Shown: positions 1 to 25,857 of the stretch, one piece after another
Position numbering within the stretch: position 1 is the stretch's first letter
How the letters are laid out: each line of letters starts with the position of its first letter
IMG/VR virus record: IMGVR_UViG_3300048854_000099
Span: 1-46,278 of that record
Strand: one strand, 5' to 3'
DNA from: a virus
Lineage: Duplodnaviria > Caudoviricetes
DNA length: 46,278 nt
Position numbers and translations under genes: made by a program
The notes under the pieces: model-generated
The model's database searches: none
Told to the model about the DNA's origin: nothing
Seen by the model: only the letters and a program-made list of their open reading frames with translations

Positions 1-162
1 ATTGCAGAATTCCGATATCTGCTCATCCGTGCTGTCGTCGGGCAGACGGACAATCGAAAGTGATTTCGGAGCGCCTTTCACCGCGCGTTGCGGATTCCAG
101 TAGTGGACGATCGTGCCATCGCCCCTTTTCCGGCCCTGGTAGCCTGGCCTGTCAGTCCTCAT
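1..162 (-). CDS. Probable phage integrase (tyrosine recombinase), N-terminal 54 aa, runs off the window
   Basis: Manual translation MRTDRPGYQGRKRGDGTIVHYWNPQRAVKGAPKSLSIVRLPDD..., open to the edge; resembles N-terminal arm-binding regions of rhizobial prophage integrases; overlaps the end of the xis-like gene. Catalytic domain not visible. Confidence 0.6.
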   Translation of the reverse strand, partial: MRTDRPGYQGRKRGDGTIVHYWNPQRAVKGAPKSLSIVRLPDDSTDEQISEFCN

Positions 163-367
163 CCCAATGTTCCTTTCCGCGTCGGGCATGATTGCCCGAA
201 GGAATCAGTCCCAGCGGATTGCCATACTCGTCAACCGGTTTTTCGACTGTGGGGGGGATTACCGTGGCGATAAGCGATTTCATGTCCATCTGGACGATGC
301 AGCCGGCTGCCGCTGCGGCTTTGAAGACGCGCTCCATGTCGGCTTGCTTGAAGGCGACCTTACTCAC
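152..367 (-). CDS. Probable excisionase-like small protein
   Basis: GTG start overlaps upstream stop (GTGA); VSKVAFKQADMERVFKAAAAAG... is typical of small ORFs directly upstream of alphaproteobacterial prophage integrases. Confidence 0.5.
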   Translation of the reverse strand: MSKVAFKQADMERVFKAAAAAGCIVQMDMKSLIATVIPPTVEKPVDEYGNPLGLIPSGNHARRGKEHWDED

Positions 368-1038
368 AGCGCCAGCTCCTTCTCCGAAATTGCAAGAGGA
401 GTGCCAAGCAAGCATCGCTCGAGTGTCCATCCGTAAGAAAACAGCCGCGAATACAGCGTGTGGTAAGGAACGCCGGAAAGTTCAGATATCTCGGCCAAAC
501 TTATCGAACGGCCATTTACTTCGAAATTTTTATTGTTGCGCCTATTCCGCTGCTGCTCTTTCATGGTCGCCCATCGGCAGTTGTCTTTTTCGTAGTTTCC
601 GTCTTGATCTGGAAAACGATCAAGCGTGTGTTTCGGAGTAGGCCGGGTCCCCATGTCCTCAAAAAAGCACATGAAACCGGTCTTTCCGCCCTCACCATCT
701 TTCCATCGGGAGCAAACCGAGATGCCTCTGCCGCCGTACAGGTGATACTCGATCGAGCTGGGATTGAAGCAGCGGCTTATCATATTTTTGTATGACAGAA
801 TTTCTTTGGACGCCGACATCCCGTGTGTGGATTTGGCCGCAGATGTCCTCTCCTTATGGAGGCATCCGCAGGATGACGTTGCGCCGGACCTGAGGTGAGA
901 TGGCTGGATGTTTTTCGTCTGTCCGCACTCGCAGAGGCAGATCAACCGCGTTAAGCGCGCGCCATTTTTCCGCGTGTGTATGTCGTCGATGCCGATAACG
1001 GTGAGCCTACCGAACTTTTTTCCTGTGAAATCACTCAT
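364..1038 (-). CDS. HNH-type phage homing endonuclease-like protein
   Basis: True start MSDFTGKKFGRLTVI (ATGA overlap); motifs CLCECG, SCGC, YGGRGISVC..W, F..DMG.RP, TLDR...DGNYEKDNCRWAT..EQQRNRR. Confidence 0.85.
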   Translation of the reverse strand: MSDFTGKKFGRLTVIGIDDIHTRKNGARLTRLICLCECGQTKNIQPSHLRSGATSSCGCLHKERTSAAKSTHGMSASKEILSYKNMISRCFNPSSIEYHLYGGRGISVCSRWKDGEGGKTGFMCFFEDMGTRPTPKHTLDRFPDQDGNYEKDNCRWATMKEQQRNRRNNKNFEVNGRSISLAEISELSGVPYHTLYSRLFSYGWTLERCLLGTPLAISEKELAL

Positions 1039-1745: not shown

Positions 1746-3073
1746 CTTTTTCTCTTCGCGATTTTGGGTTGGAGAGCCGCCTCAATTCTGGCGATGGCGA
1801 TTTCTGCGTAATCCGGGTTCAGCTCGACCATGGCGCTGTCGACGCCTAACTGCTCTGCAACAAGGGAAACGGTCCCGGCGCCGCCAAACGGATCGAACAC
1901 CTTGCCAGGAACACGTCCGAAGATTTCGCAGATCGGGCCGCAGCCCGACGGCGCTCCGCAGCAACCACAGACCGTTTTCGGGACGCCCGCCTTGATGCAC
2001 CGCTCGGCGAGTGCCGGCGGGAAGGTTGCGAAATGAGCCTCGCGGAAAGCCTTGGGCGCGATCGTCCAAACGTTGCGGCTATTTCGGGTATCGACATGCA
2101 AGGCCGTGCCCTCGGCAAACCTCTTGTTCGATTTTATCAGCTTTTCGTTCTCGCCTGCCATCTTGGTGACGACTCGGTCTCGACCTCTGTCTTCGTCCTT
2201 TGCGCATGTCCGATCGAGCCTGCCCCAGCCGACGCCGGTATCGCCCTTCCTCGATCGAGGAACACGGTCGACGTTTTCTCGCGAATTCTTTCCGACGGCT
2301 TTCATCGGCCGGTCGGGGCGGGTGCCCCCGTTGGCGCGCACGGATCCGAGCTGCTTCTGCAGATCCTGGGAAAGCCTTGCGTGAGTGTTCTGGCTTACGG
2401 GCTCGCGGATCGCTTCCTGGTCGTAGAAATAATCCTCGCCCTTTGTCAGCAGCCAGATCTTCTCATGGGCAACGGTCGGTCGGTCATAGACGCTTTCCGG
2501 CATGGGATTTGGCTTATGCCAAATGATTTCTGAGCGTACCCACCAACCGTCATCCTGAAGAGCTATCGCCAAGCGGTTGGGGATCATGCAGAGATCCTTC
2601 GGCTTCAGATAGCCACCAGGACGGATTGTTGCCCCGCTGTCGGGGCGATAGGCTTCCTTAGCGCCGAGCCGTTGAGGCCCGCGGGCGTCCGGCTGCAAAA
2701 TCGGCCCTATGGTTGAAAACGGCTTATCCCGGAAGGTACGATCGTCATTCCCGATTGCCTTGACATCCGCTGCGCTCCGGCCGTTCGGCTGTGCGGCATA
2801 GCTATCGCCGTAATTCAGCCAAAAGGTGCCGTGAGGTTTCAGGATGCGGCGGACCTCACGAAACACCTCGACCATGACTTGGATGTGCTCGCCGAGCGTC
2901 GACTCCATGCCGATCTGCCCGTCGACCCCGTAGTCGCGCAGGCCCCAATATGGCGGCGAGGTCACGACGCAATCGACCGAGTTCGCCTGCATGGCGCGCA
3001 TAGCGTCCATACAATCGCCGATGTGGATCGTACAGCGGCCGTTGAGGATGGATCGGATCAGAACGCCTGCCAT
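1742..3073 (-). CDS. Orphan DNA methyltransferase, N4-C/N6-A family (beta order)
   Basis: Catalytic VTSPPY near the N-terminus, IIWHKPNPMPES, HFATFP, SAM-binding VFDPFGGAGT near the C-terminus. Confidence 0.93.
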   Translation of the reverse strand: MAGVLIRSILNGRCTIHIGDCMDAMRAMQANSVDCVVTSPPYWGLRDYGVDGQIGMESTLGEHIQVMVEVFREVRRILKPHGTFWLNYGDSYAAQPNGRSAADVKAIGNDDRTFRDKPFSTIGPILQPDARGPQRLGAKEAYRPDSGATIRPGGYLKPKDLCMIPNRLAIALQDDGWWVRSEIIWHKPNPMPESVYDRPTVAHEKIWLLTKGEDYFYDQEAIREPVSQNTHARLSQDLQKQLGSVRANGGTRPDRPMKAVGKNSRENVDRVPRSRKGDTGVGWGRLDRTCAKDEDRGRDRVVTKMAGENEKLIKSNKRFAEGTALHVDTRNSRNVWTIAPKAFREAHFATFPPALAERCIKAGVPKTVCGCCGAPSGCGPICEIFGRVPGKVFDPFGGAGTVSLVAEQLGVDSAMVELNPDYAEIAIARIEAALQPKIAKRKR

Positions 3074-3858
3074 CACACCAGCACCGCCTCAATCTGCAGC
3101 GCAGCGATCGGCGGCGCCCAGCGGTCGAAGTGTGCTTCGATCTCGACATAGTTGCGGGGATGCTGCCGCCGGAGATCCAGTGGGTACTTGCCGACGACGT
3201 ACTGGCCTCTGGCCTGGTGCTGCTGGATCCAGCCCATTTCCATGAAGCGGCGTCGATCGATACCGATCTGGCGGAAGTCATCGATCGTGATCGTTCCTCG
3301 CTTTTCCAGCAGAACGCAGATCTTGATCGCTTTGATCTTCCACTCGGAAAGGGTGGAAGGAGCCGACGCGCCAGCCCTGACATCAGGGACATATTCGGGA
3401 AGCTGCAGACGCTCTGCAGGCGCGCAATCGCGCCAGTAGGTGTCCGTGTACCATTCCCGCCCGAGAACATCAGGAAGTTCCGGTTCAAACTTAAGCCGGC
3501 TGTAGGTGCTTCTCCTCAGGGCGAGGTACAATTCCTTCGATTTCATTTGGATGACTGTGATCCAGAGCTTCCGCGCTATCGCCATCATCTCTGATCCGGC
3601 TGTTCCCCATGGGACGAGTACCGCGCGGAAATCTGGGTTATGGACGCGATAGCGCGGTGTCGTCTCGACGGCTTGCAACAACACCTTGGCATTCAGCGTC
3701 ATCTTGGCCTCAACTCCGATCTGGCATCCGTCGGAGGGGCGCACGAGCACGATGTCAAATCCGCAAGTTTCCGGGTACGCGACCCAATCCTTCGGGACTT
3801 GCTTGATGAACGTGGCGCATAGCTCCGCCTCAGACTTGAAGATCGCTTTTGAAATCAT
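3073..3858 (-). CDS. Hypothetical protein with PD-(D/E)XK nuclease-like motif
   Basis: E...GFDIVLV.....QIGVEAK pattern; translationally coupled to the MTase. Confidence 0.55.
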   Translation of the reverse strand: MISKAIFKSEAELCATFIKQVPKDWVAYPETCGFDIVLVRPSDGCQIGVEAKMTLNAKVLLQAVETTPRYRVHNPDFRAVLVPWGTAGSEMMAIARKLWITVIQMKSKELYLALRRSTYSRLKFEPELPDVLGREWYTDTYWRDCAPAERLQLPEYVPDVRAGASAPSTLSEWKIKAIKICVLLEKRGTITIDDFRQIGIDRRRFMEMGWIQQHQARGQYVVGKYPLDLRRQHPRNYVEIEAHFDRWAPPIAALQIEAVLV

Positions 3859-3961
3859 GGGGTTTTCGCCAGTTTGGCCGGGTCGTTTATGACGGGGAGG
3901 CGCACGAAGCGGACCGCCTCCCCGCAGGACTGATCAGGACGGCGGTCCAGATCAATAGCGT

Positions 3962-4750
3962 TTACGTCGCCGGAACGGTCCTAACCGGGGCGTCCCAGTC
4001 ATCGTCCGTAATACCAGCCGAAGTTGGAGCGACGGTCCCCGAGACATCAGGTTGCGCTTGATCATCAGCCCCGACCGGCGCCGCTTCCGCAGGATCTTCT
4101 CCAAGGGCGTGATCCGTATCGGCCTCCGTCGCCAACTCGTCACCTTCCTGGTCGCCGGATCCTTCTTCCACGGCAGAGTCTTCTTCCGCGCCGGCGTCTT
4201 CGTCTTCGGCGTGGGCCTCATCCGCAATTTCCTCAGTGGTCGGGCTCTTGATCAGATCAGCCTCCGCCGCGGCAGAGATGGCCTGGTTGAGCCACGCATT
4301 GCGCAGTGTGTGTCCTTCGTTGCTGCCCTGCTGCCAGCGCTGCCCAGCGGCTGTTTCCATGCCGTAGGGATTGCTGTTCGCCATGCCGAGCTTGCCAGCG
4401 GAAAGGCCTTCAAGGTAAGCCTGGTCCTCCAGGGGCGTCCGATCTTCGAAGATGTCGAGCTGGCGACCGGCTGCGTGGCCCATGAGGCGCGCGATCCCGA
4501 TCTTGATCTTCAGATCATTAATGATGGACGCGACATTCTCCTTGCGGAGGCGCTTAGCCCACTTGATATGATCGGTCGAAAAGCCGCCTGCCTCGAGGCG
4601 CTTGACGATCCCCGACATCGAGCCTTTCTTTTCGGCCATGGATGCTTCGGCATCCGTATAATTCTGCAGCTCGACGATGAAGATCTTTTCCTGATCTTCG
4701 GTCAGGCCGGTACCGTTGTGGCCGGTGCCGGGGGTGGATTTCTTGGCCAT
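3962..4750 (-). CDS. GapR(DUF2312)-like N-terminus + Rmf/CrpP-like motif + acidic tail
   Basis: Start MAKKSTPGTGHNG; helical segment ...GGFSTDHIKWAKRLRKE; AYLEGLSAGKLG..NPY....GQRWQQG..EG; D/E-rich C-terminal third. Confidence 0.55.
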   Translation of the reverse strand: MAKKSTPGTGHNGTGLTEDQEKIFIVELQNYTDAEASMAEKKGSMSGIVKRLEAGGFSTDHIKWAKRLRKENVASIINDLKIKIGIARLMGHAAGRQLDIFEDRTPLEDQAYLEGLSAGKLGMANSNPYGMETAAGQRWQQGSNEGHTLRNAWLNQAISAAAEADLIKSPTTEEIADEAHAEDEDAGAEEDSAVEEGSGDQEGDELATEADTDHALGEDPAEAAPVGADDQAQPDVSGTVAPTSAGITDDDWDAPVRTVPAT

Positions 4751-5016
4751 TCTGGGGTTTCCCTTCATGATCTCCATCGGAGAATAATCGGTCATGTCCA
4801 TGTTTCCGCTTCGTAATAAGACGACTTGCGATAATTCGACGGTTTGAAATTGCCCGGGACCGACGCAGTGCCAATCGACCCCTTCCTGCACCGGCGCGCT
4901 CTCCGCCGGCCCTCCGTCGTCTGATCCGGTCTAACGCTCACACTCGACCGGACATCATCGCTTTGTTGTTTCGCGCGGTGTCGTCGTGCCGAGCGTGGAA
5001 CAGGTTGCAGGATCGG

Positions 5017-5235
5017 TTAGCTGCCGGACAAATCCGGCCGCAGAATTTCTTTGGGGATACCAGTGAGGCGGCTGACTTCGTCGACACGACCCGGCGGAAC
5101 GTACTTCCATTTTTTGATCGCGAAGGGCGTGACACCCATCTCTTTCGCAAGGTCGACCAGGACGACAGTTGCCCGGATGGCTTCAACGCCTGTCTTGCTG
5201 CCGAGAGAGTGTCTTGTTTTTTCCTTGAACCGCAT
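5017..5235 (-). CDS. cro: Cro/YdaS-like HTH transcriptional regulator
   Basis: 72 aa; LAKEMGVTPFAIKKW..VP..RV..V...TGIP...LRPDL signature; first gene of the leftward operon. Confidence 0.88.
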   Translation of the reverse strand: MRFKEKTRHSLGSKTGVEAIRATVVLVDLAKEMGVTPFAIKKWKYVPPGRVDEVSRLTGIPKEILRPDLSGS

Positions 5236-5260
5236 TTCTGCCTCTCAGTTTCAAACTGCC

Positions 5261-5360
5261 CTTCATTAGGTATATGTTTTTTCGGTGGGCCATAGCAATA
5301 GTCACGTATACCTATTTTCGAATACCTATCGGGAGGAGGCTAAGATGAGGGTGCAGGTAT
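5261..5360. promoter_or_regulatory. Divergent promoter/operator cluster (cro promoter on minus; putative rightward promoter for the non-coding transcript)
   Basis: Minus: TTGCTA-N18-TATACC. Plus: TTCGAA(5317)-N18-TAAGAT(5341). ATACCTA/AGGTAT boxes at 5267, 5308, 5322, 5355. Confidence 0.6.
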
Positions 5361-5916
5361 CATTTTAGACGGTCTCCAACACACCGGAGATCCCTCTATT
5401 CCAGTGCCACCCTTCGGCACCAAGCATCCGTGGAATCAACCTACTCTGAAGCTCGGTTTGATTTCGCTGCCGCTACAGCGTCCAACACCAGCAGTCTTTT
5501 TATCAGCCTGGTCAGGGCCATTTTTCGCTGGTCTAGCAAGGCCCTTTTCTTCGGACCCCGGTATAAAAGTGCTTCAGTTTCCCGGCGCCTCTGCAAAAAA
5601 GCGTTGATCCGGCGGGCCGCCTAAACCCGTTCGATTCCGTCCGATGAGCCAGGCATCGGCACCGCGAAGCAATTCATGTTCCGGAAAGATCGGCGGCGCG
5701 GGTCAAAAGCTAAAAAGACCGCATCACTCAGTCCTCAGATCACTAAATATTGGCGGGAACCACCGAGCAGACCCAATATTTCGTGATTTTCGAACCCCTG
5801 AAACCGCCGCAAGTATTGAAGGAAGCTGGGATTTACCCTATACCTAATTCAATTGCTCTGGATGAGCGACGGTTTCAAAGCCCCGGTCGGATCACTCCCG
5901 CCGGGGTTTTTCTTTT
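5353..5916 (+). ncRNA. Candidate large structured non-coding RNA in the cI position
   Basis: No convincing ORF; series of nested inverted repeats; putative promoter upstream and intrinsic terminator at the 3' end. Boundaries and strand are inferred. Confidence 0.5.
5877..5916 (+). terminator. Rho-independent terminator (possibly bidirectional)
   Basis: AAAG-CCCCGG(5881-5886)...CCGGGG(5901-5906)-TTTTTCTTTT. Confidence 0.8.
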
Positions 5917-5944
5917 CGGCCCAAACAGACGGTCCAGTCAAGCG

Positions 5945-6060
5945 CTTCATTAGGTGTTCGATTGGTATTCGACTCCGGGGATCGATCGAAGGTTACCTTT
6001 TTTCCGCGAATACCTAGTTTACCTATTGCGTCATTTAGGAAAGCAGGTATACCTATTTCT
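5945..6060 (+). promoter_or_regulatory. Early rightward promoter/operator cluster
   Basis: TTGCGT(6026)-N16-TATACC(6048); TACCTA/TAGGT boxes at 5951, 6011, 6020, 6050; shares 10-12 nt exact repeats with the 5261-5328 cluster. Confidence 0.6.
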
Positions 6061-6080
6061 ACCGAAGTGGAGATAGGACG

Positions 6081-6752
6081 ATGTCCAGAAAAATGATTTC
6101 GAAGCAGGAAATGCTTCAGCTTCGCAGTGCATTCGTGATTTTTTATCCGTCCTGCTTCGTGGCGTCCGGCGCGCCGAAACGCCCCCTGAAAATAGGTATT
6201 AAGCAAGACATGCTCGCTCGGGCGCGACAGGAATTCCCTGGCCTCGGGCATCGCCACATCAGATCGTTCCTCACCGATTACACCTCCGGAAAGCATTATT
6301 TCGAATGCTGCCGGGAAGGGGTCGCCAGAGTCGACCTGGATGGCGCCTTCTCAGGCTTTGTCACGAGACAAGACGCCGAGTTCGCCGATCGCTGCCTCCT
6401 GCTGATCAAACAGCGCAAGAACCCCGTTCACGCCAGATTTCCGACTGGTCCGCAATCCATCGGCGAGATCGCGGCAAAAGTCGTGAACGACGTCATGCCC
6501 GCTTCGTATTCGGAGTGGGCTCAGAAAAATCGCACCGCCGTCGCTGAGGCGTTTGGCGTGCCGTCCGCACTTCTGCAAGCTCCTCCGGAGACTTTGGAAG
6601 AGCGTCTCGCTCGCCTGGAGTCCGCTCAGTACGCGGCGTCGATGAGCAACAATTTCTACTACACCGACGGCAGCAAGGCGCGCGACGACGCCGAGATCGC
6701 CGATGTGCGACGCCAGATCGCCGGCCAGAAAATCGTAGCGCACGCAAGATGA
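6081..6752 (+). CDS. ProQ/FinO-domain RNA chaperone with C-terminal extension
   Basis: YPSCF....PKRPLKIGIKQDM, L..YT....Y, G..RVDLDG...G.VT..DAE.A are FinO/ProQ hallmark motifs; RBS GGAG/AGGA. Confidence 0.9.
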   Translation: MSRKMISKQEMLQLRSAFVIFYPSCFVASGAPKRPLKIGIKQDMLARARQEFPGLGHRHIRSFLTDYTSGKHYFECCREGVARVDLDGAFSGFVTRQDAEFADRCLLLIKQRKNPVHARFPTGPQSIGEIAAKVVNDVMPASYSEWAQKNRTAVAEAFGVPSALLQAPPETLEERLARLESAQYAASMSNNFYYTDGSKARDDAEIADVRRQIAGQKIVAHAR

Positions 6753-6946
6753 CGACGCTGGTGATCAACAACGACGGTACCGCGGACTGCGTCATCAGGT
6801 CTGAATGCGAGAGAAAATCGGCAATTCAGCGAGCCGAGATGGCCGGTCTGATGTGGTGTGCATCCTCGAAAATCCCGGATCCGCAGAATCCCGCCGTCTT
6901 TCTGAGACCGCAGTACCGACTCCATTTCAAAAGGAAACCGAAGTGA
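6749..6946 (+). CDS. Hypothetical protein
   Basis: ATGA coupling at the start, TGATG at the end. Confidence 0.6.
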   Translation: MTTLVINNDGTADCVIRSECERKSAIQRAEMAGLMWCASSKIPDPQNPAVFLRPQYRLHFKRKPK

Positions 6947-7218
6947 TGGACTGGAATTATCGCATGGCCGACGCCCCGCGCGGCACCGTAGTCGAAGGCG
7001 ACCGGGTGCAGATTGGCGATACGAGCCGATCGAACCGAAAGTTCGTCCCGACGCGCATCCTTATTTCCTTCCTCGACAATGGTGTCAGTAAGGTTTCGCA
7101 GACCTATCGGACCGAGCCGTCGATCGAGCATCCGACGGGATATTGGGCCGGTCTTCATCCGAAGAACCAAGGCTATGCCTGGATGCCGTATCCGGAGCCG
7201 GCGGAGCCGCCGAGATGA
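6946..7218 (+). CDS. Hypothetical phage protein (DUF551-like W...AP.....AWMP.P.P pattern)
   Basis: Start MDWNYRMADAPRG by TGATG overlap; ends YAWMPYPEPAEPPR. Confidence 0.65.
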   Translation: MDWNYRMADAPRGTVVEGDRVQIGDTSRSNRKFVPTRILISFLDNGVSKVSQTYRTEPSIEHPTGYWAGLHPKNQGYAWMPYPEPAEPPR

Positions 7219-7409
7219 GGCGCAACTCGCATCTCACCATAGCCCAGCAAATTCAGGAACTTGAGTGGCTCATCGCCAATGATCCGAACAAGGCCCTTCG
7301 CGACCAATACCGCGCCGAGCACGCCGACCTGACCGGAGAACCCCATGGACGAAGAAGCCTTGATGGCAGCGGCGAGGGCGATGTGGGCCGCCTGGGCTCG
7401 CATAGCTGA
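7215..7409 (+). CDS. Hypothetical protein
   Basis: ATGA-coupled start MRRNSHLTIAQQIQELE with GGAG RBS. Confidence 0.5.
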   Translation: MRRNSHLTIAQQIQELEWLIANDPNKALRDQYRAEHADLTGEPHGRRSLDGSGEGDVGRLGSHS

Positions 7410-7527
7410 TCCGAAGTGGGAGGAGACCCGGTGGAAGCGCCTTCCGCCGGCAGTCAAGGCGCAATTCGTCCTCGAGGCCGGCGCGGCAATCCAGACCTAC
7501 CAGTCTTTAACGCAGCGAAAACGATAG
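7345..7527 (+). CDS. Hypothetical protein
   Basis: GGAG RBS; MDEEALMAAARAMW...W..LPP..K..F...A.AAI small phage protein pattern. Confidence 0.6.
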   Translation: MDEEALMAAARAMWAAWARIADPKWEETRWKRLPPAVKAQFVLEAGAAIQTYQSLTQRKR

Positions 7528-7538
7528 GGAGCCAGACG

Positions 7539-8852
7539 TTGGCCGCAAAAGAAATTATCACCCTGGATAAGCCGACGACAGCGAAGCTTTTCCACAAAGA
7601 TCTCGGTCCTGATGCCAGAGCCGCCTTCCTGAAGCAGCTCGACGACAAGATCGCTGAGATGCCGGTCGCAGTCGAAAGCAAAAAGGACCGTGATCTCATC
7701 AAGTCGACAGCGTCGTCGATCGCCTCGCTGAAGAACCGCATCGACGAAGTCGGCGCCGCTGAAAAGGAAGAGGCAGTTGCGCTGGTCAAGCGCGTCGATG
7801 CCGATCGCACCGCGATCTGGGATGAGCTGCAGAAGCGCCAGGATGACGTCCGGCAACCGCTCACGGATTGGGAAAACGCCGAAAAGGCCCGCAAGGAAAA
7901 TATCCAGAAGAAGATCGAAGATGCGCGCAAGGCCGGCCAAGTCGGGTTCGGCGAGACCTCCGCTCAGATCCAGGATCGCATCGACCAGCTTCCGACCGAC
8001 CCGCTGTCGACCTATGGCGAGTTCGAGGATGAGGCGAAGTTGGTAATTGAGGCCGCCTACACCAACCTGGTCGCCGCTAAGACGATCGCGGTCAACGCGG
8101 AGGCCGAGAAAGAACGCGTCCGTCTCCAGGAAATTGAATTTCAGCGCCTCCGCGACGAACAGGCGAAGCGCGATGCCGAGCAACTGGCAAAGGACAATCT
8201 CCGCCGGCTGATCGACATCGGTAACGGCTTCATCGACGGCGAGGAACAGCCGCTGGCAGTTCTCTTCACCGCCCTCGAAAATATGCACGTCGATGAGACC
8301 TACGGCGATCTCCGGGAGCAGGCGAAGCAGGCCCACACCACGACGCTGCGCAAACTCAACGATCGGCGCGACAAGGCCATCGCCGACCAGAAGGAAGCCG
8401 AAGACGCCCAGGCTGCGATTGATGCCGCCAATAAGCGCGCCGCTGATGCAGCCGAGGAGACTCGCCTTGCCAATGAGCGAATCGCCAAACTCGAGCAGGA
8501 CAAGCGCGACGAAGAGGAAGATCGCGCCCGCCGCGCCGCTCAGAAGGTCATCGACGATCGCATCGCGGCCGAGGCTGAAGCCAAGCGCGTCGAGGATGAG
8601 CGCATCGCGGCCGAGGAGGCCGAGCTCGCCCGCATCGCTGAAGAAGAGCGCTTGGCCGAGCAGGCCCGCATCGATGAGGAAGAGCGCATCGAGCGCGACC
8701 GCGTCCTGAAGATCGAGGCCGAGCGGATCTTCAATGAGATCTCGGATGACGTCTTGGCCGTTCTCGCTGACGTCAAGGGCAAAGCCAGTGCCGGCCCCGC
8801 CGTAGCCGCTGCGATTGCCGCCGGAAAGATCCGGAACGTGGTGATCGCATGA
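7539..8852 (+). CDS. Long coiled-coil phage protein (often mis-annotated as TolA-like)
   Basis: TTG start after AGGGAG; E/A/R/K-rich heptads; ends AIAAGKIRNVVIA; commonly sits upstream of phage recombination genes. Confidence 0.8.
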   Translation: MAAKEIITLDKPTTAKLFHKDLGPDARAAFLKQLDDKIAEMPVAVESKKDRDLIKSTASSIASLKNRIDEVGAAEKEEAVALVKRVDADRTAIWDELQKRQDDVRQPLTDWENAEKARKENIQKKIEDARKAGQVGFGETSAQIQDRIDQLPTDPLSTYGEFEDEAKLVIEAAYTNLVAAKTIAVNAEAEKERVRLQEIEFQRLRDEQAKRDAEQLAKDNLRRLIDIGNGFIDGEEQPLAVLFTALENMHVDETYGDLREQAKQAHTTTLRKLNDRRDKAIADQKEAEDAQAAIDAANKRAADAAEETRLANERIAKLEQDKRDEEEDRARRAAQKVIDDRIAAEAEAKRVEDERIAAEEAELARIAEEERLAEQARIDEEERIERDRVLKIEAERIFNEISDDVLAVLADVKGKASAGPAVAAAIAAGKIRNVVIA

Positions 8853-8962
8853 CAGCGGCCCTCATCTCCATCGCCGTCTTTTTCATAGTCGCCTGCGTCG
8901 TCTGGACGGAGACCTTCGTCCGGCGCGCGCAGCATAGGAAGGGCATCACATGGGCAGACTGA
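8849..8962 (+). CDS. 37-aa single-TM peptide (not in the ORF track)
   Basis: MTAALISIAVFFIVACVVWTETFVRRAQHRKGITWAD; ATGA and TGATG coupling on both sides. Confidence 0.55.
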   Translation: MTAALISIAVFFIVACVVWTETFVRRAQHRKGITWAD

Positions 8963-9186
8963 TGACGGAAGACCTCTTGATGCTCACTGGTGCGTGGTTG
9001 ATCGCCGTCGGGTTCGTCTTGCTAATCTGGGCCTACACCACTTTCACGCAAAACAAGAATTACGCGATCAGCTTCATCGTCGCCGGAATCGTGACCTTCG
9101 TCTGGGGAGGCGCGCTGCTTTGCCCGCCGGACCCCATCCAGTTCGGCGCCGGCATCAGCATCAGGATCACATCCAATGACCGTTGA
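8962..9186 (+). CDS. Small two-TM membrane protein
   Basis: Two hydrophobic segments; coupled start (alternative ATG at 8950). Confidence 0.65.
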   Translation: MTEDLLMLTGAWLIAVGFVLLIWAYTTFTQNKNYAISFIVAGIVTFVWGGALLCPPDPIQFGAGISIRITSNDR

Positions 9187-10117
9187 AATTCTAGATTGGG
9201 AGGAGGGCGAGACCATCACTCGCCCCGGCCTCTACAAAAACATCCCTTTGGACCGATACCACAACGACACCACGCTGCTATCGGGACCGTCGGTATCGAA
9301 GTCCAGTATCAAGCATATCGCACCGCCGAGCGGGAGCCCGAAGAGGTTCTGGCAAAACTACCCGGGCAACCCGAACAGGCTCAAGAAGCCGTCGAGCCGG
9401 GAAATGGATTTCGGCAAGGCCGTCCACGCCATCCTTCTCGGCGATGAGGTCTTTCAGGACCGCTTCGTCGTCATGCCTGAGATCGTTGAGGGCGAGACCT
9501 ACAACAAGAACAAGACGGTCTGGAAAAATTGGTTCAAGCGGATGGAGGCCAACGGCCTCGTCGTCATCAGCCAGGATCAGATCGACCAGATCGCCCTCAT
9601 GGCGGAAGACGCTCGCCAGCATCCGCTTGTGGTCAACGGTGGGCTCAACGGCGACGTCGAAATCTCGATGTTCGCCAAGGATCCGGCGACGGGGATCTGG
9701 CTGAAGTCGCGCCCTGACGTGAGAGCCATTGATGGGGACTTCGTCGATGTGAAGACGGCGAGCTCGCTCGATCCGGACTTCCTGGAGCGCCAGATCGGCG
9801 ACATGGGCTACTACCTGCAGGGCGCGATGACGAAGATCATCTGCGATCTCCTCCGGATCCCGTTCAACAGCTTCACCTTCTTCTACACGCTCTCCAAGGA
9901 GTACGCGGACTCCGATTATCGGGTGCTGAGCGAAGAGGAAATCTTGGTCGGCACCGCGACGATCAACTACGGCCTGAAGCACATCAGGCACGGCCTCGAC
10001 AACGGCCAATGGCCCGGGGTCTCGATCTACGCCCGCGAAAACACCCCGATCCGGATGAACAAATTCGACCGGGAAACCCTCCTCAAAGCAATCGCAATGG
10101 ATGGCTTCAGACCATGA
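9176..10117 (+). CDS. RecE/exonuclease VIII-like PD-(D/E)XK nuclease (DUF3799-like)
   Basis: YH, SKSSIK, FGKAVHAILL, E.SMF..D..TG..LKSRPD, DVKT, YYLQGA; directly upstream of RecT-like gene. Confidence 0.88.
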   Translation: MTVEILDWEEGETITRPGLYKNIPLDRYHNDTTLLSGPSVSKSSIKHIAPPSGSPKRFWQNYPGNPNRLKKPSSREMDFGKAVHAILLGDEVFQDRFVVMPEIVEGETYNKNKTVWKNWFKRMEANGLVVISQDQIDQIALMAEDARQHPLVVNGGLNGDVEISMFAKDPATGIWLKSRPDVRAIDGDFVDVKTASSLDPDFLERQIGDMGYYLQGAMTKIICDLLRIPFNSFTFFYTLSKEYADSDYRVLSEEEILVGTATINYGLKHIRHGLDNGQWPGVSIYARENTPIRMNKFDRETLLKAIAMDGFRP

Positions 10118-11325
10118 ACGATCTCACAACAATTGACGAAGACGATTTCGCAGCGCCGGCCGTGGCCCGCAAGAGCGTCTTCGACACCGAACGTTTCAAG
10201 GAAATCATGGCCGTCGCCGAGGTCATGGCGATGTCCAGCTTGATCCCGGAATCGCTGCGCTTCGATATAGAAGTCGACACCAACGGTGAGCCGATAAGCA
10301 ACAAGAAGCGCGAGCTGCCCTATGAGCAGATCCGCGCCAACTGCTTCCTCATCTGCAACTGGTCGGCAGGCGTCGGCATGGACCCATTTGCGGTCGCCCA
10401 GGGGACGTCGATCGTACGTGGTCGACTCATGTTTGAGGGCAAGATCGTCCATGCCGCCCTGACTTCGACGCTGGGCGTCAAACTGAAGGCGCTGTATGGC
10501 GTCTGGGATCCGGCGAAAGCTCAGACGATTGTCGGTGGCGAGGCCAACGGCAAAGATCTTGCCGTCCGGATCTACGAAGAATCGCCCGACGGCTCGATCG
10601 GTCGGCACGTCGACGGCTATGTCGGCGGCTGGGAGACCACGGGCAAGAACTCCCCTTGGGCTTTGAATAAGGACTGGCGCAAGCAACTCGTTTACCGCGG
10701 CTCCCGTGAGTGGGCTCGGGTCTACGAGCCAGGCGTCATGCTCGGCGTCATCACCCCAGACGAATACGAGCCGGCCTGGGACAGAATGCGGGACGTCACC
10801 CCGACGCGGCAGCAGTCGACAGGAACCGACGTCATCGATCGCCTGAAGGCTGCGAAGTCCGGGGCGACCGACAAGCCGGCGGCTGGCTTCGACCAGGCCC
10901 GAATCAACGAAATCGCCAAAGCCCCTGAGGCCCCTGAAGAGGGCACGACCGCGTCCGGCGACGGGGAAGCTCAATCGACCATAAACCCCGCAACCGTGGG
11001 CAAAGACCCCGCGAAATCGGATTCTTTTGAGGGCGAAAATCCCCGTCCGACAGCGCCGGATTACGATTGGCTTCGTGCAATCGCGAAGGGCCTCTGGGCC
11101 GCCACGAACTTCAAGGGGGACATATCCGTGCTGAAAAATAAGCGCATCGGGCTTGGCGGCACTTATCCGTCCAAGGGGAAGCCGCAGGCCATCGTCGACA
11201 AGGCGAAGGCAATCATGGGGACGTGCACCGACGTCTGCGAAGGGAGAACGAACCCTGCGGACGCCCGCAAGCTCATCGCCGGCATTGCCGGCATGGAAGT
11301 CCGTGAGCTGGCGGAAAAAGCATGA
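10114..11325 (+). CDS. recT: RecT-family single-strand annealing protein with long C-terminal tail
   Basis: MDPFAVAQ.T.IV.GRL..EGK...AAL, KQL.YR..REWAR.Y.PGVMLGV.TPDE motifs. Confidence 0.8.
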   Translation: MNDLTTIDEDDFAAPAVARKSVFDTERFKEIMAVAEVMAMSSLIPESLRFDIEVDTNGEPISNKKRELPYEQIRANCFLICNWSAGVGMDPFAVAQGTSIVRGRLMFEGKIVHAALTSTLGVKLKALYGVWDPAKAQTIVGGEANGKDLAVRIYEESPDGSIGRHVDGYVGGWETTGKNSPWALNKDWRKQLVYRGSREWARVYEPGVMLGVITPDEYEPAWDRMRDVTPTRQQSTGTDVIDRLKAAKSGATDKPAAGFDQARINEIAKAPEAPEEGTTASGDGEAQSTINPATVGKDPAKSDSFEGENPRPTAPDYDWLRAIAKGLWAATNFKGDISVLKNKRIGLGGTYPSKGKPQAIVDKAKAIMGTCTDVCEGRTNPADARKLIAGIAGMEVRELAEKA

Positions 11326-11630
11326 GCAGAAATCCGCACACGAAGCTGGACGGCCAGGTCCGTGAACTCTTCCACGGCGGAAAAACCACCGGGGAAATCG
11401 CCAAGTCCCTCGGCTTGCCGCGCGAAGTCGTCGCCGAATCCCGGGGGAGGATCATGGAAGCCCGGGCCGAGCGCGAGCGACGCATGGACAAGGTTCGGCC
11501 TCGACCTGTCGACGACGAGTCGAAGGTTGTCCTCCGCCGACAGGGCTTTTTCGGTGACGTCGAAATCATCGTTTCCGTCCCGCGCATCATCACAATCCAT
11601 GGAAAATATAGGGGAGAGCAGCATGGCTAA
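11322..11630 (+). CDS. HTH-containing hypothetical protein
   Basis: VRELFHGGKTTGEIAKSLGLPREVV. Confidence 0.65.
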   Translation: MSRNPHTKLDGQVRELFHGGKTTGEIAKSLGLPREVVAESRGRIMEARAERERRMDKVRPRPVDDESKVVLRRQGFFGDVEIIVSVPRIITIHGKYRGEQHG

Positions 11631-11994
11631 GCAGGCATTCAAGAAGGGCGACATCGTCTCCCTCAAAGGTTCCGTCGAATACGAACACGGCGGGACGCTA
11701 AAGATCGTGCTGGTCGATCACCAGCCCGCATATGCCAATGTCGGTGATGTGACCATGGTCGCACCCAATTTCGATATCGGCGATGACGTAATCACCGACA
11801 CCGGCGAGCCATACACCGTAGCTGCTATCTATCGCGACTTCGCGTGGGTGTATTCCGACAAGGAAGGTTTCGACACCGTCGAACTAGCGACGTTGAAGCG
11901 GCCTGAGCCAGCTGACGAGGCGGACGAACCTGCCGGCGACACCGATGATTACAGTCAGACCGGCATCGCTGCAGACGCCAAGGGGAGCGAATAA
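11623..11994 (+). CDS. Hypothetical protein (tandem SH3/KOW-like repeats)
   Basis: Start MAKQAFKKGDIVSL after GGAG; second unit FDIGDDVIT. Confidence 0.65.
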   Translation: MAKQAFKKGDIVSLKGSVEYEHGGTLKIVLVDHQPAYANVGDVTMVAPNFDIGDDVITDTGEPYTVAAIYRDFAWVYSDKEGFDTVELATLKRPEPADEADEPAGDTDDYSQTGIAADAKGSE

Positions 11995-19563: not shown

Positions 19564-20733
19564 TCATGCGCCCAACAAATTTCGCTTAAATATTGGCATC
19601 GACGATAGCGCTCTAGCAAGACCTATGGAGGGCTTATCGATGAAACGAGTGAAGACGTCGGCAGCGGCAAGGGACGCAAGAAATGCAGTCATGAGCGTCA
19701 GCGGGAGCGGCTCATCCAGATAAGCCCCAATCCGCGCGCAGACCAGAAGAACGATGAAGTGGGTCAGGTAAAGGGGATAAGAAATATGCCCGAGCCATGT
19801 CAAAACGGGATGGTCTAAAACGGATTTGAACCTCGCTGAACCAAAACCTAGTGCTACCAAGAGACCGGCACCGATCCCAGACAAGAAATAATGCAGAACC
19901 GCTATCTCTGTAAAAAGCCAATTGGCCTCCAGCAAGCAACAGCAAATTGCCCATACGCAAAACAATTGCCATCCGTTGAGCATTGAGATCGTTTGCCTGA
20001 TATTATCCTTATAGATCGCAATGAACCCGCCAAGAATAAATAGCGGGAGGTATGAAAACGTCTGCAGCATGGACGCGAGAATTGACCACGACCCGATAGA
20101 ATAAAGCCAAGGGAAGACGGACCCTGGCACTACTAATAAAATTGCTGCGAAAACAGTGAACTTCGGAGCGCGCAACACTGCGAAAACTATCACAGGCATC
20201 ACCACGGATATTCTCATTTCATGGGTGAGTGACCACATAATCGGGTTAAGTGTAAGATCCGTCCGTTTTCCCGTCATCATAAACTGGCCGAATATAGTTT
20301 CGGGTGAAACAGATGAATTCGAGATTTCAGCCAACCAAGTGCTGTACTTATCATTCAACAAAAAATTATGCGTAAAAAACCAGGCGATAAGCATCAGTGC
20401 GATCGCGGCTGCAAAGGGCAGCCAAATGCGAACTACCCTTTTTAATAGATATGAGGCGTAAGGCATAGGTTTGTTGTTGATTGCAAGCGTGAGGACAAAC
20501 CCGCTTAGAACAAAGAACACCAAAACAGCGGCTGGGCCATCCCAAAATAAATGCAGAACCGAAAACGAGATGAAATGCTTCCACTCTAGGCTAAATTTGT
20601 GGACGGCACTGTGGTCCGCCCACAATAGTTCGGCAAATCCGGGGATCGAAAGAACCAAGTGATTAAGAAGAACGGTGAGCGCGGCAAGCCCGCGCAAAGA
20701 ATCTAATGATGTAAATCGATCTTGGCTTTTCAC
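19564..20733 (-). CDS. Acyltransferase family 3 (OafA/Oac-like surface polysaccharide O-acyltransferase), moron
   Basis: LDSLRGLAAL.V..NH, VLVFFVLSGFVL, KRVVRIW, WSLTHE, LG.ISYPLYL.H; about 10 TM segments; visibly AT-richer DNA. Confidence 0.93.
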   Translation of the reverse strand: MKSQDRFTSLDSLRGLAALTVLLNHLVLSIPGFAELLWADHSAVHKFSLEWKHFISFSVLHLFWDGPAAVLVFFVLSGFVLTLAINNKPMPYASYLLKRVVRIWLPFAAAIALMLIAWFFTHNFLLNDKYSTWLAEISNSSVSPETIFGQFMMTGKRTDLTLNPIMWSLTHEMRISVVMPVIVFAVLRAPKFTVFAAILLVVPGSVFPWLYSIGSWSILASMLQTFSYLPLFILGGFIAIYKDNIRQTISMLNGWQLFCVWAICCCLLEANWLFTEIAVLHYFLSGIGAGLLVALGFGSARFKSVLDHPVLTWLGHISYPLYLTHFIVLLVCARIGAYLDEPLPLTLMTAFLASLAAADVFTRFIDKPSIGLARALSSMPIFKRNLLGA

Positions 20734-25224: not shown

Positions 25225-25332
25225 GCTATGATCCTCTGGCAGGTGGTGATACGACTTGGGTAGTCGTTCAAACCACAGTTGAAAGGTCTTCTGATGTGCG
25301 CTTTGGTGAGGTCGGATGCCTATCGAGAGAGA

Positions 25333-25857
25333 ATGGCGGAGATCAAAACTGTGCACGGCCATAGACCAGGAGGCCGTCGTTCTCCCGAATACAGGCTCTG
25401 GCTCGATATCAAGCGTCGATGCTCTGACACTAAAGCCAAGGACTATCCCAAATACGGAGGCTCTGGCATTAGGGTCTCCGCTGAATGGAACGCGTCATTC
25501 ACCACATTTCTTTCTGATGTCGGATCGAAACCCTCCGCTGACCATGTGTTGGCCAGAAAGGACCGAAACGGGCACTATCGAAAAGACAACTGTGAATGGG
25601 TGACGCGACATGCATCAGCCACGCGCCAACGTAAGTCGTTCATCCCAGTTACGGTGGGAGGCATCGACTTTGAATCGATGACGGCGGCGTGCCGCCATTT
25701 CGGCGTTGGCCTCACAACCGCCCTCGAAAGGATAAGGCTGGGGGCCACCATCGATGATGCGGTGACCGTCAAGGCGTGGGCAGTACCGAGAACCCGCAGC
25801 CGAGAAAGCTACCTTCGCCACGATCACCCTGACAAAAACCAAAGGGCAGCCGATTAA
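25333..25857 (+). CDS. HNH-type homing endonuclease-like protein inserted antisense in the late operon
   Basis: HG....PEY..W..IKRRC, YGGSGI.V..EW..F..FL.DVG.KP, R.D.NGHY..DNCEW; same family as 364-1038. Confidence 0.8.
   Translation: MAEIKTVHGHRPGGRRSPEYRLWLDIKRRCSDTKAKDYPKYGGSGIRVSAEWNASFTTFLSDVGSKPSADHVLARKDRNGHYRKDNCEWVTRHASATRQRKSFIPVTVGGIDFESMTAACRHFGVGLTTALERIRLGATIDDAVTVKAWAVPRTRSRESYLRHDHPDKNQRAAD

Follow-up and report, generated by a model that had tools for sequence, protein, structure and literature searches.

The subject of this analysis is the immunity-type region of the phage contig IMGVR_UViG_3300048854_000099 (46,278 nt, the whole record, hereafter the window), which represents an incomplete phage genome. 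In this region, the 845 nt between a cro-like gene and a gene for a ProQ/FinO-domain protein (positions 5236-6080) contain no repressor-like open reading frame (ORF). The element in the gap belongs to a genuine family of large structured RNAs of phages, predicted as transcripts, which has no catalogue entry and carries a predicted antisense gate. The features that make up this element, which we denote the cassette, are the following (strand as in the window):

5355..5908, minus: long structured RNA (predicted, ~550 nt), delineated by covariation, wobble counts, a promoter motif and the edge of conservation
5752..5774, minus: tip motif, near-invariant 23 nt at the tip of the long co-varying stem
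5683..5691, minus: internal hairpin loop, predicted kissing partner 2, ~200 nt downstream of the 5' loop and complementary to it
5890..5898, minus: 5' hairpin loop of the long RNA, predicted kissing partner 1, co-varying with 5683-5691
5880..5916, plus: terminal hairpin and U-tract, intrinsic-terminator-like (terminator scan; 96.6% of cells paired, 4 of 7 pairs with two-sided change)
5913..5941, minus: predicted promoter of the long RNA, -35 at 5941-5936, 17-nt spacer, -10 overlapping the plus-strand U-tract
5816..5844, plus: predicted antisense promoter, -35 at 5816-5821, -10 at 5839-5844
5851..5916, plus: predicted antisense RNA (~65 nt), defined by promoter and terminator, antisense to the ~58 nt with which the long RNA begins

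The predicted RNA family, its structure and its probable strand

The entry point to the family was a distant blastn match to an intergenic stretch of Brucella phage BiPBO1, which yielded a common 21-nt pattern. This pattern returned 31 viral and 22 genome loci; with four suspected chance matches (L020, L043, L048 and L054) and six duplicates dropped, there are 45 distinct loci including the window and BiPBO1, 34 with the full terminal cassette (terminator and antisense unit) and 11 distant ones that lack it. A second sequence pattern yielded only three duplicates and one chance match, and a metagenome scan added 23 further loci, mostly distant members, many of them near-identical to one another. 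The carriers are alphaproteobacterial phages and mobile DNA, and the named hosts are mostly Rhizobiales (Sinorhizobium, Rhizobium, Phyllobacterium, Brucella, Microvirga, Bauldia and Aureimonas), along with one metagenome-assembled genome labelled Chitinophagaceae. Among family-level genome samples, 5 of 151 match the RNA model (one weakly and probably falsely) and 13 of 401 match at the DNA level (several over the terminal hairpin only). BiPBO1 is the sole match over the element among cultured phages, and no convincing carrier was found among the plasmids searched. In BiPBO1, the homologue sits between the cI operon and the early operon, with an intact cI of the helix-turn-helix (HTH)-S24 type and no ProQ gene; its record places a hypothetical gene of 44 codons on the element. 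The cassette (L007, positions 2874-3368) also recurs as a module between different flanks in assembled contigs from eight runs, four of which are marked as probably DNA or give phage-length contigs.

The Rfam scan proposed in the preliminary description of this DNA yields no family at gathering score when the covariance models of Rfam 15, which we take to include ROOL, GOLLD and C4-type models, are run on the window. Six sub-threshold matches fall within 5200-6120 (E 0.11-5.2); over the element, there is no match at E <= 1 in 11 homologue loci and none at E <= 0.5 in 12 distant loci. The literature covered, which did not extend to subscription papers and bioRxiv supplements, yielded no account of this RNA. 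The core motif occurs as text in no paper found, nor in the seven searchable supplement files of PMC10690425, two large files of which may hold it, and the accessible portion of bioRxiv 10.64898/2026.09.15.751765 contains no occurrence of phage, prophage, Rhizob or Brucella.

Two checks of structure had been suggested. The fold z-score is weak on both strands (-1.68 on plus and -1.65 on minus for a single-sequence fold of 5360-5930), so the claim of structure rests on the homologues, among which the covariation check holds. In the alignment of the 34 full-cassette sequences (A2), 21 of the 34 predicted pairs show two-sided change. In the core alignment (A3; 31 sequences, three near-identical ones having been left out), 94.3% of the 928 cells are paired and 20 of the 30 pairs change on both sides; none of 500 shuffles scores as high and slid controls reach 35-45%. 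As A3 served both to derive and to score the structure, and as its members are related to one another, these values amount to strong support and not to a p-value.

All motifs listed in the preliminary description are present in the window at the positions given there, and its structured RNA in the gap stands as a large co-varying element, but only about half of the helices listed there survive comparison with relatives. The ten helices, and the terminal hairpin, were counted in nine aligned relatives (Watson-Crick cells/cells):

5446/5571: kept, 63/63
5641/5654: kept, 52/54
5404/5416: kept, 35/45 plus 9 G-U
5745/5773: kept, 66/81
terminal hairpin: kept, 62/63
5498/5563 and 5514/5540: middling, 33/54 each
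5398/5431: not kept, 27/54
5371/5386: not kept, 21/63
5815/5848: not kept, 19/54
5799/5870: not kept, 13/72

The predicted long RNA consists of a 5' hairpin, a spacer, a conserved core (5631-5816, the extent of the model match on the minus strand) and a 3' domain that comes in four alternative sequence types downstream of the core, type A in the window. The 3' ends are G-rich in types C and D, and no conserved G-run is found in types A and B. The near-invariance of the tip motif is partly by construction, given that the homologues were selected by this motif; loci that came by other routes carry variants. Part of the motif has what we take to be a resemblance to the start of a tRNA T-arm; the predicted pairing differs and the similarity may be due to chance. 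Among 27 sequences, no ORF of at least 18 codons with a ribosome-binding-site (RBS)-like site is shared within the long RNA. No conserved small hydrophobic ORF of the type I toxin-antitoxin kind was found there either, window included, and a hok/Sok-like system was rejected on this ground. A pairing between the core and the conserved 3' end was considered on visual inspection and discarded.

The long RNA was previously placed on the plus strand, ending at the terminator. This placement is not confirmed: the wobbles and the energies fit the minus strand, and the plus strand suits the terminal hairpin and its U-tract alone. In particular, a Watson-Crick-only alignment of the long core stem has 118 A-C against 43 G-T cells on the plus strand, that is, G-U on the minus strand, and the consensus energy is lower on the minus strand in all six alignments. 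The terminal hairpin, when read on the minus strand, shows 0 G-U and five A-C and thus works on the plus strand; in relatives, it is likely to be the end of the cI operon as well. Based on these wobble counts and consensus energies, the long RNA is assigned to the minus strand and would be transcribed towards cro. This is also the strand of the tRNA, integrase gene or ORF behind which the RNA lies in distant members.

A plus-strand RNA that would start at a PRM-like promoter, or at the 3' end of the cI operon, and end at the U-tract appears highly improbable. The terminator does work on that strand, the Watson-Crick helices suit either strand, and several GNRA/UUCG-like loops are readable on plus by eye, but the wobble bias and the consensus energies point the other way and no conserved -35 is seen by eye at the left end. 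The reported PRM-like promoter (5317-5346) is indeed present in the window but is not kept in L060, the sole relative with the same layout, where the site falls within a 13-nt gap.

The predicted promoters recur at fixed positions. On the minus strand, 32 of the 34 sequences (2.1 expected) have TTG[AC] 33-38 nt before the hairpin on its upstream side, with differing operator-like sequences around it. Given a 17-nt spacer, the -10 falls on the complement of the U-tract and transcription would begin at the hairpin base. A consensus promoter scan gives 0 promoters in 4700-6800. A similar leftward motif occurs at the ProQ phage locus L061, which lacks this RNA, and the leftward -35 motif may be a wider feature of these early regions. 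In L061, a prophage with both ProQ and cI, the same slot holds another non-coding stretch (3520-3900) with C/U-rich repeats on minus, and the leftward -35 motif lies after its terminator. On the plus strand, TTN-N3-N17-TA is found at an offset of 62-65 from the core motif in 32 of the 34 sequences (background 0.0007 per position). The RNA predicted from this site ends at the U-tract and measures 52-66 nt in 33 of the 34 sequences and 83 nt in one.

The antisense RNA carries the loop sequence of the internal partner and hence would compete for the 5' loop of the long RNA. The cognate loop duplexes have a mean energy of -11.1 kcal/mol, compared with -8.9 +/- 0.5 kcal/mol for permuted ones (0 of 20000; 19 distinct combinations). 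Four of four cassette-bearing loci outside the alignment (L060, L078, L080 and L088) have, by eye, their own matching loop pair that differs from those of the members; in L060, which was found via ProQ and not via the motif, the match is fully complementary over 10 nt.

Repressors, ProQ and the cI-less lineage

The genes and control regions that flank the cassette are as follows:

5017..5235, minus: cro-like HTH gene (YdaS E 4e-7, P22_Cro E 3e-4), first gene of the leftward operon
5267..5361, no strand: OR-like control region with AGGTA/TACCT repeat boxes and the likely cro promoter
5951..6060, no strand: OL-like control region with the same AGGTA/TACCT boxes and the likely rightward early promoter, -35 at 6026
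6081..6752, plus: ProQ/FinO-domain gene (PF04352 E 3e-21), first gene of the rightward early operon

The earlier identification of cro and of the ProQ/FinO gene is confirmed by these Pfam matches and by alignment to solved ProQ. The ProQ protein of the window scores 75.8 bits against PF04352 (cut-off 27; domain at residues 20-113) and aligns to the solved ProQ and RocC domains, with E 1e-10 to the solved ProQ 5nb9. Its C-terminal segment (approximately residues 176-206; window 6600-6730), which has no family name, is conserved in seven of seven aligned homologues and matches by itself in L074 and L138. The likely cro promoter on the minus strand has a -35 near 5298-5293 and a -10 near 5274-5269, and a promoter-like site is found at the equivalent place in L060. 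The AGGTA/TACCT boxes cluster at both ends of the gap, which gives an OR...OL layout if these repeats are operators; the order in the lambda immunity map is cro-OR-cI-terminator-OL-PL.

A six-frame profile search supports the previous observation that no repressor-like ORF lies between cro and proQ, and the same search served as the suggested check for cI remnants: locally built HTH and S24 profiles give zero matches at E <= 10 in all six frames of the entire window. A decayed or recoded cI in the gap was rejected on the six-frame translation and the profile searches, and homologues carry the element alongside an intact cI. An RBS and ATG at 5332-5347 open a frame of only seven codons, which is absent in L060. 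Since the window is incomplete (the portal gene covers only profile positions 192-354, the latter half, and the integrase gene is truncated), the absence of cI applies to the window and is not claimed for the whole genome of this phage. Comparison with G006, the complete but diverged genome of L060, suggests that ~20 kb is missing.

The relatives indicate that the RNA cassette mostly does not replace CI. Within the 3-3.5 kb covered upstream of the 33 full-cassette homologues, there is an S24-type cI in 22, an HTH-only gene in six and neither in five (one of the 22 S24 matches and one of the six HTH matches score below the Pfam cut-off), so that a repressor-type gene is present in 28 of the 33.

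The association with ProQ is similarly limited. None of 44 other motif-selected loci and none of 23 metagenome loci has ProQ next to the RNA (flanks of at most 3-4 kb, some shorter). Conversely, the RNA is present in 1 of 15 ProQ phage loci (L060 only) and in 0 of 3 ProQ genome loci. A sample of ~400 genomes contains 13 that match the RNA and three that match ProQ, with no overlap, a tally that is a lower bound and leaves out G296. Single-protein locus searches with ProQ or Cro returned almost nothing, and a metagenome search with the ProQ alignment gave no confirmed match. The proposal that ProQ and the RNA form a cognate pair that replaces CI is thus not supported in view of the ProQ-free RNA loci, the 14 of 15 ProQ phage loci without the RNA and the repressor-type genes.

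The cI-less cro-RNA-proQ arrangement itself is a lineage trait, common to the window and a diverged complete phage. L060 has the same layout and junction as the window, with 40% identity in the cro-position gene, 48% in ProQ and 76% in the RNA; that the layout is shared despite this divergence implies that it is old. A search for the junction that distinguishes the cI-less layout led to no genome other than G006 (66,331 bp, 100% complete, with terminal repeats). G006 has no S24, HTH_3 or integrase match, the last established by tblastn and a profile of the integrase family of the window because PF00589 is uninformative (the provirus G007 has no match to it either). One small ORF of G006 appears HTH-like by eye and matched no family. 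The intact cassette in a phage without cI and integrase points to a role in lytic growth, and such a phage may need no immunity.

These observations bear on the possibility of RNA-based immunity, in which a ProQ-stabilised antisense RNA would control the long RNA and the circuit would hold the lytic operons off instead of CI. We consider this quite unlikely, and its specific form, an integrase-bearing lambdoid lineage without CI in which a ProQ-protected 65-nt antisense RNA would block the kissing-loop fold of a 550-nt lytic-entry RNA, is equally so. The window does combine an integrase fragment with the lack of cI at the switch, and the only other cI-less carrier found also has ProQ as the first gene of the early operon. 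The best ProQ and integrase homologues each lie on 344,569-nt contigs, which may point to an integrated relative. Furthermore, FinO-family proteins bind cis-encoded antisense RNAs (PMC9977716). However, a cI or HTH gene accompanies the 28 homologues mentioned above, ProQ is absent from the motif-selected loci, and the RNA-matching and ProQ-matching genomes are disjoint. The complete cI-less relative lacks an integrase, cro retains its own promoter-like site and operator-like boxes, and no significant complementary target exists elsewhere in the window or in G006 (best E 0.39-0.89). Finally, the missing ~20 kb of the window phage could hold a repressor.

Proposed role and relation to known systems

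The explanation that we favour, at about an even chance, is that the cassette encodes an antisense-gated cargo RNA for lytic growth that helps the phage and does not replace the repressor. The cassette would give rise to two overlapping RNAs. The long one, folded and ~550 nt in length, would be read leftward from a promoter of its own; the other, an antisense RNA of ~65 nt, would base-pair with the 5' end of the long RNA and block a loop-loop contact that the latter likely needs for folding and action. The long RNA might act in trans, as a scaffold or decoy by which the invariant tip motif is offered to a host factor in early lytic growth. The lytic job is proposed because the promoter lies in the OL region beside the early promoter and because the cassette is intact in a phage without cI and integrase. 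In the lineage of the window and L060, cI was likely lost and the cassette stayed. ProQ would be an early gene product; it may bind the antisense RNA, which is short and ends in a terminator, but would not be needed as a partner. The sequences themselves show the conservation, the compensatory pairing, the two promoter motifs at fixed positions and the joint variation of the two loops, and also that cI is usually present and ProQ rare; that the RNAs are transcribed, from which strand, with antisense control and to what end is what we infer.

Several observations weigh against this explanation. Only 5 of 19 rows have the cognate loop as their best partner, loop duplex energies are similar on the two strands (-11.1 vs -10.7), and the relatedness of the sequences means that the counts overstate independent events. 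The 11 distant members without the terminator/antisense cassette indicate that gating is not universal. With respect to strand, the alignment of the type-C 3' domain is nearly tied (-36.4 vs -35.6), and single-sequence z-scores are weak and choose neither strand (minus is better in 19 of 45). All eight runs searched with L007 consist of assembled contigs, two of them 31-48 kb and DNA-like, so the transcripts are predicted only. The scaffold or decoy job is a guess, and the integrase of the window is not explained by a lytic helper that outlived cI.

The cassette keeps a constant place, with the end of the cI operon on one side and OL on the other, which could also suit a cis-acting switch. In such a switch, leftward transcription would be antisense to the convergent cI operon or interfere with it, or would read into cro in lineages that have lost cI, and the antisense RNA would decide on continuation. 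The long RNA has no U-tract terminator at its 3' end in the window, and minus-strand genes follow the RNA in L018 and L059. Such a switch is nevertheless unlikely because conservation ends sharply at the cassette edge, and four elaborate 3' domains, as well as members far from any cI, exceed the needs of a cis signal.

Another, very unlikely, possibility is a priming RNA of the ColE1 type, where the antisense RNA sets copy number, or a single-stranded DNA structure. In ColE1, the ~550-nt RNA II is opposed by the convergent RNA I, whose terminator overlaps the start of the long RNA; the same two-RNA geometry and size are predicted here, albeit in a phage context, and the element was not found on plasmids. 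The G-rich 3' ends of types C and D and the RNase H gene directly downstream in L018 fit priming, and the G-T wobble asymmetry would also suit single-stranded DNA. By contrast, G006 encodes its own DnaB-like helicase, types A and B lack a conserved G-run, RNase H is found at one locus only, and no plasmid with the element was found in the set searched. In L018, this RNase H gene (3424-4140, plus) is on the same strand as the RNA and is followed by a DUF5131 gene.

Among phage systems, the antisense immunity RNA C4 of P1 and the CI RNA of P4 resemble the present one in RNA-RNA pairing within a phage control region, and some distant members follow what we take to be an AlpA-like gene, as in P4-like elements. 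Unlike these systems, the cassette has no Rfam C4-type match and no targets elsewhere in the genome, and the CI protein is usually present. The P4 CI RNA is processed from the same strand as its targets seqA and seqC and pairs with sites on both sides (PMC4825925), whereas the small RNA here is predicted from a convergent promoter. The position of the BiPBO1 homologue between the cI operon and the early operon is that of a lambda-type immunity region, and no RNA is mentioned for this element in the accessible part of the phage description (KT724718; PMC4729917).

Parallels also exist in plasmids. In the Inc/repZ pseudoknot/FopA system of pCol1B9 and in FinP/traJ/FinO (PMC9977716, PMC7491321), as predicted here, a short cis-antisense RNA disrupts long-range pairing, and in the window a FinO-domain gene lies near the RNA. 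As in Inc/repZ, the co-varying long-range pairing includes the antisense target loop (in related sequences). The differences are that the long RNA here has no conserved ORF to gate, that a FinO-domain gene is beside the RNA in only two loci (the window and L060), and that the setting is a phage switch region instead of plasmid replication or transfer. In contrast to FinO-FinP, FopA-Inc and RocC-RocR, the protein and RNA genes do not travel together.

ROOL and GOLLD, which occur in phages and prophages, are large, elaborately paired RNAs of open function; in GOLLD, one half is conserved and the other variable, and its level increases during lysis (PMC12286853). The present family is similar in its co-varying structure of several hundred nucleotides in phages and in combining a conserved core with one of four different 3' domains, and tRNA genes adjoin two of its distant members. 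However, it is the 5' half that is conserved here, as opposed to the 3' half in GOLLD, the usual location is the immunity region and not a tRNA island (a tRNA is called in 3 of 57 loci), an antisense cassette is predicted, and there is no Rfam match. Large structured phage RNAs are few and their functions open (PMC12286853). The family described here offers exact predicted promoters, a built-in antisense regulator, a compensatory loop contact, a near-invariant tip motif and named non-pathogenic soil hosts, and with these handles the function of a large phage RNA becomes directly testable by genetics. Such carriers include Sinorhizobium glycinis CCBAU 23380 (L058), Neorhizobium lilium 24NR (L056), Rhizobium alvei TNR-22 (L052) and Phyllobacterium trifolii CECT 7015 (L038). 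The lambdoid immunity region, in which the cassette lies, has long been regarded as a switch made of proteins only; should the cI-less, ProQ-bearing lineage turn out to be temperate, nature would offer an example of an RNA circuit in the place of a protein repressor.

Other genes of the window and of related loci

The leftward operon of the window extends to the cut end of the contig:

1..430, minus: excisionase-like ORF (152-430) and the cut N-terminus of the integrase (1-162)

The integrase gene is truncated by base 1 of the window. The N-terminal 54 residues of the fragment are 63-87% identical to 25 proteins of ~385 amino acids each, several of which are named integrase in their source records and come from Rhizobiaceae-type hosts. 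The excisionase label is our assumption, the ORF having no family match. The integrase belongs to the same family as those of two cI-bearing carriers, G001 and G186, in which it is located ~7-10 kb from the RNA on the early-operon side. Its placement, with the excisionase-like ORF, inside the cro operon is unusual; G006 has the DnaB-like helicase gene at that place. An HNH endonuclease gene (367-1332, minus) adjoins the excisionase-integrase pair, and an HNH-resembling ORF that matched no Pfam family (25279-25857, plus) opposes the direction of the late genes. The window also encodes an Acyltransferase_3 protein (19564-20733, minus), and another such gene is found in L059 (4007-4972), 3' of the RNA on the same strand; genes of this family often modify the cell surface.

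In G006, a separate leftward gene cluster (L083, positions 2023-11824) includes a sliding-clamp-like gene and an ATPase gene, and a BrnA-type antitoxin-like gene (L083, 15521-15796) precedes the terminase gene.

Several distant members of the family show other contexts. Those at L044 (3342-3416), L046 (3100-3176) and L051 (3237-4436) are located just 3' of a tRNA gene or an integrase gene on the same strand. Related type-D members without the antisense cassette (L106, L107, L109, L110, L112, L114, L117, L121, L124, L126 and L128) are found among varied host-like genes. A presumably AlpA-like ORF lies upstream of the RNA on the same strand in L110 and an integrase gene is nearby in L112, which suggests small integrative elements. 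Finally, L020 (2990-3030), which had been dropped as a chance match, and L108 (730-775) have the tip motif and its flanks in common, yet not the remainder of the core, and L020 may represent a further distant branch of the family.

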